From contig NC_092353.1 in assembly GCF_963676685.1 (NCBI RefSeq), forward strand, positions 28,706,001 to 28,770,000: a DNA stretch of 64,000 nt. Direction: 5' to 3'. Shown here piece by piece: positions 30,001 through 33,000 of the stretch. The first letter of the stretch is position 1; each line of letters opens with the position of its first letter. The DNA is from Mytilus edulis. Taxonomy: Eukaryota. The position numbers were made by a program.

Positions 30001-33000
30001 ATACTCTCCAGAACTTCCCCTTGAATATGAGTAAGTTTTCATTAATACCTATAAGTTATTATACTGACATCTGCCATAATCGCCATAATCAAAGTGATAA
30101 ATATGGTGTAACGAGCTTGTGTGTTATTTGTTGCTATCTGAATGTTCCAAATTCTTCAAAGAGGATAACCAACTTTCTTAGTACATATAACTGTTTAAGA
30201 TTTAACAAATCATCAACGAAAAGATAATTATTAATTTCGTCAATCCGAATCGATCACTTTGGTTTACTTTTATCATGAGCACTCAAACACAAAATATTGA
30301 AAAATATTCTCATTAGTTATTTTATTACAACACAGTCATATTTTATTTCCACTATTGTATTACAGCAAAGTCAAAGCATCTATCCACAATGTGATATTCC
30401 AACAAAGTCAGAAAATTTATCAACACTTTTTTTATTACAAGTCATCCACAATGTGTTATAACAACACAGATACGTCATGACATTCGTGCACACCGTGTAG
30501 TTACAATACAATAATCAAATCTTTTCATAACGTGTTATGACATCAAAGTTCTAAATTTTAACAGCATTTTATTATTACAAAAAAGTTAAAACATTTAATC
30601 GCAACGTGTGATATTTCAACAGAGTCTTATATATGGTTGTGAAATGTCCTGGACGGCTTTGGCGTTAGAATTTCTAAGAAACATATCGTCTATTATTTTC
30701 CCTTAAAGTAAAATTAATATGATATTTCCCCCTTTTTAGACAATGTCCAATTGATGGCGGTGATCTTGGAAAAACGCTAGGAAGATGTGAGAAGGTTTGT
30801 GATGGCAATTATGTTAACGTAACAGCTGTGAATGTGCAAATGGTGGACGAAAAAACACAAAACTTTAGATGGAGCAAATGTTATGTTATACGTCCATGGG
30901 AACAGAAAGTTTACTACATGAAGTGCAAGTAAGTAGTAATATCACACAAAGCTGTATTTTCGGATAAACCTTTTTCAATTTTCAATTATTATCATCATTG
31001 CAGTAGTGGTAGTATAAAAAACACCAAAAATGTTCACATGTATCGATTATAATACTTCGTTTGATATCATATCAACCTTTATTCTCTATTTATTTGTCAA
31101 GTTTACTTAATGGTAAATGATGAGGTTCAGGCTCATCTTCTTAAATACTTTAATATGCTTGATGAAAATTGAAGATTAAAGGCTTCTTTATCTAAATCCA
31201 ACACAGTTATTTTATTTTTTTTATTTTCAGAAGTGATCGACCTACTTTTGAGAGCAGTTCATTTAAGTGTGTTCCAGACAACTTTATCAGACGAAGGGTT
31301 GCTGTTTTCTGTCCAGAATTTAAAGAGCACCAATGTCAAAAAGTGGACCTCGAATTACCAACTAATTGTGCTGCAAGCCGATTTGAATGTGTCCAACCGA
31401 AGAAAACAAAGCAACAAAGCGTAGACAGCTTTTTTGATTCATTGTTTTTGTAGTTCAGTCTTTTAAAGAACTATCCGCACGGTGTGCTGCAGGTCAAATC
31501 TAATGGTGTCATAAAAACCATTCTGAACAGACGAAACAGATGAAATGCCTTAAATTGTGACCTCACATATTAGAAAATTTTGTATTTTCTTTTTAAATCC
31601 ATGCAGACTGTGATATTTTGTTGTTTTTTGTAATATTGTGCACATCATCATCCATTATGCCATGTTCTTGTAAAAGTGACTAATGTATATAGATAAAATA
31701 TCATATTTTATATATCTGTGTCTGGTAGTTTCTTTTCCCCCCGTGTAGAATAGTTAGTAATTGACATTAGTTAAAGAGATTTTATTACGAATCAAGATCC
31801 CATTTTTCATCAGTTGATCTAATTTTCCATTATAACAGATAGCATGTCTTGCGAGAGGTTTGGCATGCCATTAAACCAGGTTTAATCCTAAATTTTTATC
31901 TTAAAATGCCCGGTACCAAGTTAGCAATATGACAGTTATTATCAAATAGTTTGTTGTATGTGTGTTGGCGTTTGTTTTTTGTGTTAAATTGTGAAGTGGT
32001 TTAATAATTACATGCAGTTATCTAATCCGAAATTACTCTGATGTCCAACGACTGTTTTGCCAGACAAGCTGGGGCCGTGAGACGTCAGAGCTCCTCCCTT
32101 TTTAAAAAGTTGATACTTGCCCGTCCAAAATGGATGTGCTGCTTCGTTGCTTTTTGGGCCCACTGACGGCCTTGGAATAATATAAATCGAGCGTCAATCT
32201 GTTCATTTTTCATTTAGTCACCCTTCATTTTCCCCTATTTTAACAGTTTTTACAGTGACGCATCAATTCTGTCATTTTAACTTTTATTTTGAAAGATTTT
32301 CATGTGATCCACAAGAAAAAGTAAGGCACAACGTATTATGGGAGCTGATGACCCTAGGTCAATATGAATACATAATCTAACACCTCGTTCATTAACGATG
32401 CAAGTAAGGTCCAAGTGCTTCCGATTGTTATCAGGGTTGGCTACTAAATGTTAAATAACGATCTCCTGTAAAGGAGGTGAAGAAATATACCTAAATATTT
32501 GCATAATTTCAGTCTCGAGGCCGCCAACTCTCTCGTAACTTGACGTCTATTTGAAAATGAAAGTCAAAATGCTGGAATCGATAGGTCACTGTGAAAATTG
32601 TTAAAATAGGGAAAATAATGGGCGGCAGGTAGGTGAAACTTACATGAATGAAGAGATAAATGAACAATGAACAGATTGATGACCGATTTATATAATTCCA
32701 AGGCCGTCAGCAACGAAGCAGCGCATCCCCTTTAGACGGGCAAATATCCACTTTAGCCGTTGGACGTCAGAGTATTAAATCTCGAACTAGTAGTTATCTA
32801 CACGACGTGGATTATGCCTAGGATTGACTTTTTTAAAAATTAATTTCAAACAACTGATTTGCGAGTTATTGAATCAACCAGTAATATTTTATCCCATATT
32901 GTTCCATTGCTTTTCTCGTACTTTTTGTGTGTTTCCATCGGGTTTAGTCTGTAATCTATATTTGTTTTCGCCGAAGCGAGTTATGACTTTTAAACTTTAT

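Follow-up and report, generated by a model that had tools for sequence, protein, structure and literature searches.

Spätzle is a ligand of Toll, and an N-terminal helical domain followed by the knot is typical of Spätzle/NGF pro-proteins and not of DAN proteins, for which we know of no pro-type domain. Heterodimeric cystine-knot hormones—GPA2/GPB5 and bursicon—also exist, and their subunit genes are often neighbours. Cystine-knot cytokines as a whole are defined by a three-disulfide knot. One review (PMC3328748) describes the growth-factor knot as a ring, formed by bonds II–V and III–VI, through which I–IV passes, and reports that VEGF-A mutants without single disulfides retain the fold. In chordate IL-17s a cysteine pair has been lost jointly, with serines in its place (PMC4517768), a pair that invertebrate IL-17s keep (PMC4517768; PMC8353272); such a fold can therefore work with two of three knot disulfides.

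We analyzed a window of 64,000 nucleotides from Mytilus edulis (NC_092353.1, positions 28,706,001 to 28,770,000, forward strand) that carries two gene families, A and B (Table 1). By the six-cysteine definition of the knot, A has all six positions, whereas B retains just I, II, IV, and V (4/4 window copies and 12/12 B-type proteins). The locus is duplicated and rich in repeats. The interval 30740..31453, to which the first-pass annotation had drawn attention, coincides exactly with exon 3, the following intron, and exon 4 of the four-exon gene B1; the M. edulis database model P0001 leaves out exon 2 of this gene. Both introns checked are of phase 2 in A and B, the second lying one codon past Cys II in B and two codons past it in A.

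Table 1. Features of the A/B locus (positions are those of the window).
Feature	Coordinates	Strand	Description
A1 gene	1115..5299	+	expected B partner would fall just past the left edge of the window
A5 gene	7660..11026	-	diverged full-knot A paralog; head-to-head with B'
B' gene	12201..14889	+	diverged B paralog, about 40-45% identity to B; LPQHCAAS
N run	21107..21312
A2 gene	24331..27597	-	full-knot paralog; head-to-head with B1, ATGs about 1.8 kb apart
A2/B1 divergent intergenic region	27598..29426	.	presumed shared promoter
B1 exon 1	29427..29587	+	ATG; hydrophobic signal-like N-terminus; start of N-terminal domain; donor GTAGGT; 29427..29588 is 96% identical to M. trossulus protein P0002 (tblastn)
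B1 exon 2	29932..30031	+	helical portion of N-terminal domain; 97% identity to P0002 residues 56-88
B1 exon 3	30740..30928	+	acceptor AG ends at 30739, donor GTAAGT at 30929; C90, c0, Cys I (KVC), x (SKC), Cys II (MKC, codon 30924..30926)
B1 intron 3	30929..31230	+	phase 2, GT...AG; interrupts the II-III ring segment, place and phase as in A
B1 exon 4	31231..31453	+	no Cys III; stop TAG 31451..31453
B1 exon 4 cysteines	IV 31268..31270; V 31367..31369	+	also y (VFC), q (HQC), and z (FEC)
B1 position VI	31373..31375	+	Ala
A3 gene	41331..43498	-	head-to-head with B2, ATG-ATG about 1.15 kb
B2 gene	44652..46851	+	four exons; CAAS, Cys III absent
A4 gene	53178..55893	-	head-to-head with B3, about 1.15 kb
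B3 gene	57047..59834	+	four exons; cysteine pattern as in B1 and B2

Head-to-head A/B pairs number four in the window, with start codons about 1.1–1.8 kb apart. They include the ancient A5/B' pair, in which the A5 match furthest upstream (11026) lies ~1.2 kb from the ATG of B'; a database relative of B' is P0015. The A2/B1 intergenic region holds a ~1 kb insert not found in the other A/B pairs. The three recent pairs all stem from a single segmental duplication, so that the pairing amounts to about two independent observations. At the DNA level, blastn detected no resemblance of the A5/B' unit to the recent units. The A and B proteins of four Mytilus species come from source contigs equal in size.

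The motifs on which the two families had been aligned are present as first described: PMC, Q.I.KVEC, TTKC, YYCRP.NY..R, and PTACSC in A; KVC, EQKVYYMKC, FKCVPDNFIRR, PTNC, and CAAS in B1; and LPQHCAAS in B'. The second B motif holds for B1, but B2 and B3 have YYMNC. The central claim of the first-pass annotation, that Cys III and Cys VI are missing together from every B copy, is borne out: B1, B2, B3, and B' have no cysteine between II and IV and read C-A-A at the V–VI segment, whereas both cysteines are kept in 5/5 A copies (A1–A4 and the diverged A5), with CSC where B has CAA. A tyrosine (TAT) occupies the column of Cys III of full-knot relatives in B'. In a matrix of 24 homologues, 12 carry III together with VI, the other 12 carry neither, and none carries just one of them; IV, y, V, and z are cysteine in all 24. 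Because these sequences are related, the pattern represents one to three loss events on the tree, not 12 independent ones. Two changes are needed on the maximum-likelihood tree; since the AU test does not reject a single clade (p = 0.334), the loss cannot be claimed to have recurred independently. The broken-knot form is found in proteins of four Mytilus species, Mizuhopecten, Saccostrea, and Crassostrea, the oyster and scallop genes being LOC111119622, LOC134265259, and LOC110453143; judged from these sequences, the paired loss is old, common to oyster and scallop proteins.

The bonding scheme from which it had been argued that the ring cannot close (I–IV, II–V, III–VI) agrees with the review cited above: with the III–VI bond lost, the knot ring would be open. 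Accessory cysteines x, y, and z, overlooked earlier, are conserved. A further cysteine missed at that stage, c0, lies four residues before Cys I and tracks the loss, being present in 12/12 broken-knot vs. 2/11 full-knot sequences. The proposal that HQC (q) and FEC (z) stand in for III and VI, which would have spoken against a broken knot, is rejected: q is present in 8/8 full-knot B-like relatives and z in all 24 homologues, so both are ancestral accessory cysteines and not replacements.

The AF2 model of B (pLDDT 72.7, pTM 0.63) has helices at 55–64 and 66–78 and long hairpins at 162–177 and 186–201. The Foldseek comparison suggested by the first-pass annotation pointed to the expected family at weak scores: the PDB matches listed for B are cystine-knot growth factors—sclerostin, NGF/NT-3, IL-17A/F, VEGF, NBL1, and noggin—and 0 of at least 500 matches reached E 1e-3 or better (best E 3.7e-3, TM 0.57 on target). 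Sclerostin 6l6r_D is the top match for both B (E 3.7e-3) and A (E 3.3e-3). Among the matches listed, the predicted fold of B appears to match growth-factor cystine-knot proteins only, if weakly. The A model has helices at 62–87 and, ahead of the knot domain, a linker at 85–112 whose pLDDT stays below 50. The A linker carries a conserved [IF]-R-G motif; the corresponding place in B has no basic site. IL-17A is among many weak fold matches of the A and B models. Membership of the IL-17 family (PF06083) is rejected, as neither the exon peptides nor full-length A and B gave a match at E up to 10.

Sequence-level family searches returned sub-threshold signals. None of the four B proteins has a Pfam match above cut-off, two being without any match and two matching Sclerostin only (E 0.038–0.065); matches among the 23 superfamily members are likewise below threshold (Sclerostin in 4, best E 0.03; Spaetzle in 1, E 0.15), as are those of single exon peptides (A last exon: Spaetzle 0.0093, DAN 0.023; B exon 4: Sclerostin 0.017). 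For Spaetzle (PF16077), A falls below the gathering score (14.7–20 vs. 27 bits; best E 0.001), and the four B proteins have no match at E up to 10. Sclerostin (PF05463) and DAN (PF03045) also stay below their gathering scores, at 13–15 vs. 27 and 14–15 vs. 22 bits, respectively. A PDB sequence search with A, B, and B-superfamily profiles yielded nothing significant; the best relevant match, sclerostin (E 0.037), covers the C[IV]PD...CP segment and C.C, and matches to EBS, BT_0846, and LtpM1 look like chance. Language-model neighbours of B fall in Spaetzle-bearing clusters in 17/30 matches (score 0.92), and a search with the knot domain alone gave Spaetzle/NGF clusters (top score 0.91).

Like Spätzle and the neurotrophins, A and B are predicted to place a signal peptide and a pro-type domain ahead of a cystine-knot domain at the C-terminus. 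UniRef labels some A proteins "Spaetzle domain-containing," Spätzle 3e07_B is match 19 of the A model, and NGF and NT-3 are matches 4 and 5 of the B model. Unlike these families, B has neither Cys III nor Cys VI, nor a Spaetzle or NGF Pfam match, and accessory cysteines x, y, and z occur in both A and B (with q also in B). Finger 2 of sclerostin can be aligned to the B superfamily from Cys IV via the "CP" cysteine as far as C.C, the IV-to-y spacing being equal. Between II and III, several full-knot relatives show C-x3-C, as in eight-membered-ring knots; unlike sclerostin/DAN, the A/B family varies from 3 to 11 residues between II and III, and B has no ring. The likeness to IL-17 drawn earlier holds for the joint loss of a cysteine pair but is inexact as to the bond: chordate IL-17s lost the penetrating I–IV, not the ring pair, whereas B lost the ring bond III–VI. 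The disulfide-deficient VEGF-A proteins are laboratory mutants of a distant family, whereas B is a natural lineage long conserved. Since the VEGF-A fold is reported to survive without single disulfides (PMC3328748), the dependence of B on a partner or on its extra cysteines that had been suggested is not a necessary consequence. The structure 1mjv is among the matches of the A model. GPA2/GPB5, bursicon alpha/beta, and FSH resemble A/B in having two paralogous knot subunits, and the A model matches include FSH beta and the alpha2/beta5 ligand of C. elegans; no sequence-level membership of A or B in these hormone families was found.

If B were not homologous to cystine-knot proteins, the I–VI numbering would have been imposed on an unrelated cysteine-rich fold. 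Pairwise A–B similarity is indeed weak (BLASTP E 2e-4 over 43 residues), hhalign with close B sequences only gave E 0.0029 and a probability of 10.8%, and the Foldseek E values all lie above 1e-3. That shallow comparison is superseded by deeper profiles: a 23-sequence B-superfamily alignment and the A family match as homologues over almost their full length (hhalign, 97.8% probability, E 7e-13, 162 columns), in a register that aligns I, x, II, IV, y, V, and z, so that the claimed alignability of B with A stands. Intron phases and positions are common to A and B, B-like relatives with the full C...C.C pattern (E 5e-15 to 4e-5) bridge the two, and the structural matches listed all come from one superfamily. 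An alignment artefact is accordingly very hard to credit. Equally far-fetched, in our estimate, is the idea that B is a decaying copy of A, in which mutation broke the knot and the cysteine pattern carries no functional meaning, as the lack of a Pfam domain in B, its "uncharacterized" label, and its repeat-rich, duplicated setting might suggest. Against such decay, exons 3 and 4 are intact in 4/4 window copies with all 10 cysteines retained, dN/dS among B1–B3 is 0.12–0.22, the same pattern is present in four Mytilus species, oysters, and scallop, and the Mytilus B and B' sequences form a clade with support 97/96. B paralogs are under purifying selection, and pseudogene status is rejected on the intact exons and the dN/dS values.

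Two further readings concern what B does. As a secreted antagonist or decoy in the manner of DAN/sclerostin, it would bind a ligand or receptor, perhaps A or the receptor of A, and block signalling instead of acting as a signal. Sclerostin leads the structural matches of both models and is best at the sequence level too (Pfam E 0.017–0.065; PDB profile E 0.037), and the C-x3-C of several full-knot relatives points the same way; however, every sclerostin/DAN score lies under the curated cut-offs, the N-terminal helical domain plus knot is an architecture of Spätzle/NGF type, and the language-model neighbours are Spaetzle/NGF, which together make antagonism improbable. In an obligate heterodimer, B would be unable to fold or signal alone, a bidirectional promoter would co-express the two genes, and the intact knot of A would support the open-ring B. 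The head-to-head layout, kept in recent and ancient pairs, and the hormone precedents favour this arrangement, but the pairs are few and mostly one duplication copied. Complex prediction of A 105–234 with B 86–224 gives weak support, with a score of 0.54 vs. 0.28 for the best of three controls; the mark applied is reached by 51/78 solved complexes and 2/108 mismatched pairs, and at 0.60 or under by only 5/78 solved complexes and by all 4 passing mismatches (of 180). Between runs, at least 76% of contacts are the same, and partner pLDDT is 74 or higher. This weak pass may reflect likeness to solved cystine-knot dimers, remembered by the predictor, and the test does not separate A–B from A–A or B–B. 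Cysteine parity—even in B (14), odd in A (13)—argues against a covalent A–B link and fits a covalent A–A homodimer better. We regard an obligate heterodimer as doubtful.

B stands as a genuine "open-ring" form, so far uncharacterised, within a known superfamily, for which we infer the disulfide connectivity and any dependence on a partner. The reading that we favour, and consider probable, is that B is a functional secreted bivalve member of the growth-factor cystine-knot superfamily that lost III–VI as a pair and likely serves as a dimeric ligand subunit. Spätzle/neurotrophin and sclerostin/DAN proteins would be its nearest leads. In the predicted protein, exon 1 would supply a signal peptide, exons 1–2 an N-terminal domain of helices, and exons 3–4 a two-finger beta-hairpin domain, whose fingers would still be tied by I–IV, II–V, the accessory x, y, q, and z, and a B-type extra pair, c0 with an upstream cysteine. 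The paired loss is old and has been maintained under purifying selection. B would most likely act as an extracellular dimeric ligand subunit, with the divergently transcribed full-knot A as the best candidate for its partner, or at the least as a gene under shared regulation. A bolder extension, which strikes us as unlikely, makes A and B the two chains of an unrecognised heterodimeric Spätzle/neurotrophin-like bivalve cytokine, co-transcribed by way of bidirectional promoters, with amplification in the form of A/B cassettes; B, with its open ring, would be a dedicated partner, with c0 stapled to an N-terminal cysteine in replacement of III–VI, diversifying ligand specificity for a very large Toll-like receptor repertoire.

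Within the set of papers searched, there was none on the A/B family or its pairing and no description of a mollusc Spätzle-type protein without knot cysteines; the mussel IL-17 lists accompanying PMC8353272 could bear on the point. With no Pfam domain and "uncharacterized" labels only, the B family escapes any domain-based survey of immune and signalling genes in bivalves. A lineage spanning mussel, oyster, and scallop appears to have lost the ring disulfide, not the penetrating one, yet evolves under constraint, and such an open-ring lineage offers a natural experiment on the purpose of the knot. Its conserved head-to-head pairing with a full-knot paralog offers a testable hypothesis of co-regulation or heterodimerisation. 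We know of no endogenous ligand of bivalve Toll-like receptors, and A and B are candidate ligands in animals that have numerous such receptors.

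The first-pass annotation described the B genes of this window (B1, B2, B3, and the diverged B′) as a "broken knot" family next to the full-knot, cystine-knot-type A genes (A1–A5), with Cys III and Cys VI of the six knot cysteines (I–VI) lost together in all four copies. The sequences bear this out: All four window B copies lack a cysteine between II and IV and carry C-A-A-S after a PTN/PQH motif, with ten cysteines encoded by exons 3–4 in each, and all five A copies keep the additional cysteine (TTKC; NYC in A5) together with C-S-C. The interval annotated for B1, from exon 3 to the stop codon of exon 4, was exact.

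Positions of A and B genes, and of the B1 exons, in window coordinates
Feature	Position	Strand	Note
B1 exon 1	29427-29587	+	ATG and hydrophobic N-terminus
B1 exon 2	29932-30031	+	second upstream exon
B1 exon 3	30740-30928	+	followed by GT..AG intron
B1 exon 4	31231-31453	+	ends in TAG
B1 gene	29427-31453	+	four exons
B′ gene	12201-14889	+	
B2 gene	44652-46851	+	
B3 gene	57047-59834	+	
A1 gene	1115-5299	+	
A5 gene	7660-11026	-	diverged A
A2 gene	24331-27597	-	
A3 gene	41331-43498	-	
A4 gene	53178-55893	-	

The four-exon reading of B1 agrees fully with the M. trossulus RefSeq model of 224 aa (P0002; LOC134686388). Its exon 4 peptide matches both P0002 and the M. edulis B protein P0001 at 100% identity, marking the window as mussel rather than human DNA, and P0001 also contains the peptides of exons 1 and 3. 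Window genes were searched one exon at a time with exons unjoined, and full-length analyses used database proteins unaltered. Against window B1, A1, and A2, some of the public models P0001, P0009, P0013, and P0014 appear to carry splicing errors or truncations: The M. edulis B model (190 aa) lacks exon 2, and two A database models lack the exon encoding Cys I and II. The B1 exon 2 acceptor region holds a small tandem duplication (29876–29953), in which a 29-bp segment (29876–29904) recurs at ~29925–29953, giving two candidate acceptors 49 bp apart. The window is AT-rich (31% G+C), with 206 consecutive N at 21107–21312, an assembly gap or mask, separating parts of the DNA from B′ to A2.

Pairwise similarity between A and B is thin (BLASTP E 2e-4 across 43 residues), and a shallow profile comparison is weak (E 0.0029). 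A HMMER search with the B profile against 1.84 billion representatives returned 17 proteins with E ≤ 1e-3, eight of which carry both Cys III and C.C (P0019, P0022, P0023, P0025, P0026, P0027, P0029, and P0030). A B-superfamily profile including these relatives matched the A family with a probability of 97.8% (E 7e-13; 162 columns, N-terminal domain included). Both comparable introns are in phase 2 in A and in B, the second lying one codon past Cys II in B and two codons past it in A. On the strength of this deep profile match, the bridging full-knot relatives, and the matching introns, A and B are paralogs, with Cys I, II, IV, and V numbered in register.

We compared 24 aligned sequences: four A, eight full-knot B-like, six Mytilus B, one B′ relative, one scallop, three oyster-type, and one unnamed. 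Positions III and VI are both cysteine in 12 and neither in 12, with no split case. Cysteines IV and V and the accessory y are present in 24/24 rows, I and the accessory x in all 23 rows covering them, and II in 23/24 (missing only at the N-terminal edge of fragment P0027). Models excluded as fragments or mis-spliced (P0001, P0009, P0013, P0014, P0016–P0018, P0028, and P0033) fit the III/VI pattern by inspection where the sites are covered. Position VI is Ala in Mytilus, Pro in Mizuhopecten, and Leu in oysters; at the start of B′ exon 4 (14665–14679), Tyr occupies the Cys III column of the full-knot relatives, its TAT codon one transition from a Cys codon. A maximum-likelihood tree rooted with A, in which long branches are present, needs two changes to the broken state, and a single origin is not rejected (AU p = 0.334). 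The paired loss appears to be one to three events, each taking both cysteines, with no surviving intermediate.

We then asked whether the accessory cysteines q (HQC) or z (FEC) fill the III/VI places. Neither can: The full-knot relatives carry both, with q present in 20/20 B-superfamily rows (including 8/8 full-knot) and z in 24/24 rows, so this check does not refute the first-pass reading. A further cysteine, c0, four residues before Cys I, tracks the loss (12/12 broken versus 2/11 full-knot sequences). Mytilus B and B′ have another cysteine upstream (C90 in P0002), on a short hairpin predicted just ahead of Cys I (strands 88–93 and 99–104), and from the modeled strand register we infer that c0 would be bonded to it. 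Cysteines total 14 in B (P0002), an even number, and 13 in A (P0008), which lacks q; because the A count is odd, one accessory cysteine is left unpaired, which suggests a possible covalent A–A dimer.

An AF2 model of P0002 from a 23-row alignment (mean pLDDT 72.7, pTM 0.63) has two helices (55–78) followed by strands, including a long hairpin (162–177/186–201). In the structural check proposed in the first-pass annotation, the Foldseek matches listed were growth-factor cystine-knot proteins—among them sclerostin (6l6r_D, E 3.7e-3, TM 0.57 on target), NGF, NT-3, IL-17A/F, VEGF, NBL1, and noggin—but none in the PDB reached E ≤ 1e-3. The A model (pLDDT 69.1) matched the same kinds of protein and, in addition, FSH beta, Norrin, NT-4/5, and Spätzle (3e07_B, rank 19). 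Pfam assigned neither A nor B to a family above cut-off; A scored 20 bits against Spaetzle, and the best B score was ~14–15 bits for Sclerostin (cut-off 27 for each). Among language-model neighbors of B, 17/30 hits were clusters with a Spaetzle domain in a minority of members (score 0.92), and the knot domain alone pointed to Spaetzle/NGF/IL17 (0.89–0.91). II–III spacing among relatives ranges from 3 to 11 residues. From the fold matches, sub-threshold Pfam scores, and language-model neighbors together, we assign both families to the growth-factor cystine-knot superfamily; the subfamily may be Spätzle/neurotrophin-like or DAN-like. A genes conserve an [I/F]-R-G motif at the end of exon 2 (e.g., 26798–26923, − strand; P0008 residues 85–112), where a linker modeled at pLDDT below 50 joins the helical N-terminal domain to the knot domain. 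Activation cleavage could occur after the Arg of this candidate site; a basic residue is absent from the equivalent place in B.

In growth-factor knots, as defined in PMC3328748, two disulfides make a ring that the I–IV bond penetrates. The ring bonds are therefore II–V and III–VI, and with III and VI absent from the sequence, B lacks one ring bond, in line with the first-pass claim that one bonded pair is missing and the ring unclosed. The same source reports that VEGF-A mutants without single disulfides retain structure, and PMC4517768 and PMC8353272 describe a cysteine pair lost together in chordate IL-17s. Given these precedents, an open ring is compatible with a working fold; dependence of B on a partner is possible and is not required by the open ring. 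Exons 3–4 are intact in every window B copy, and dN/dS (Nei–Gojobori, counted exon by exon and then summed) is 0.12–0.22 for B1–B3 and 0.12–0.39 for A1–A4.

Every window B (+) is preceded by a divergent A (−): A5/B′, A2/B1, A3/B2, and A4/B3; A1 is part of a further cassette cut by the left window edge. ATG-to-ATG spacing is 1.83 kb in A2/B1, 1.15 kb in A3/B2 and A4/B3, and ~1.2 kb in A5/B′ (from the most upstream A5 match). The three recent units share 79–91% nucleotide identity across aligned blocks, intergenic DNA included, and are therefore copies of one cassette, which as a whole has undergone at least three segmental duplications. The head-to-head arrangement is older than the A/A5 and B/B′ splits, as the diverged A5/B′ pair shows, and the pairing, which counts as about two independent observations rather than four, suggests co-regulation. 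In four Mytilus species, A and B proteins stem from equally long contigs. The A2/B1 intergenic region has a ~1-kb insert (27745–28721), absent in A3/B2 and A4/B3, holding an internal direct repeat (near-identical ORFs 27837–28052 and 28272–28436). The DNA separating the B1 unit from the A3 unit contains a reverse-transcriptase fragment (37994–38347, +; Pfam RVT_1, E 1.2e-15), which points to a putative degraded retroelement; nearby ORFs (32987–33397 and about 37646–37948) had no Pfam match. Similar short ORFs with abundant T-D-G-Q-T-D/R-K-H repeats occur at 26167–26410 and 36162–36405 on both strands and probably represent a dispersed repeat element.

Complex prediction for A 105–234 with B 86–224 scored 0.54 versus 0.28 for the best of three controls, which weakly supports pairing and cannot tell A–B from A–A or B–B. 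The mark for this score was reached by 51/78 solved complexes and 2/108 mismatched pairs; scores at 0.60 or under included only 5/78 solved complexes and all four passing mismatches (of 180). Runs agreed in at least 76% of contacts, with partner pLDDT at least 74. Because solved structures include many cystine-knot dimers, the score may reflect likeness to them, and the odd (A) and even (B) cysteine counts argue against a disulfide-linked A–B dimer.

The "broken knot" reading is thus supported at the level of sequence and homology. The broken form occurs in proteins of M. edulis, M. trossulus, M. galloprovincialis, M. californianus, and M. coruscus and, beyond Mytilus, in Mizuhopecten yessoensis, Saccostrea cucullata, and Crassostrea virginica, all labeled uncharacterised or hypothetical; none of the papers searched describes this family or its broken knot. 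The paired III/VI loss therefore reaches past the window into an old bivalve lineage, in which B would be a secreted ligand subunit with an open ring, still under constraint, that may work with its divergently transcribed full-knot neighbor A.
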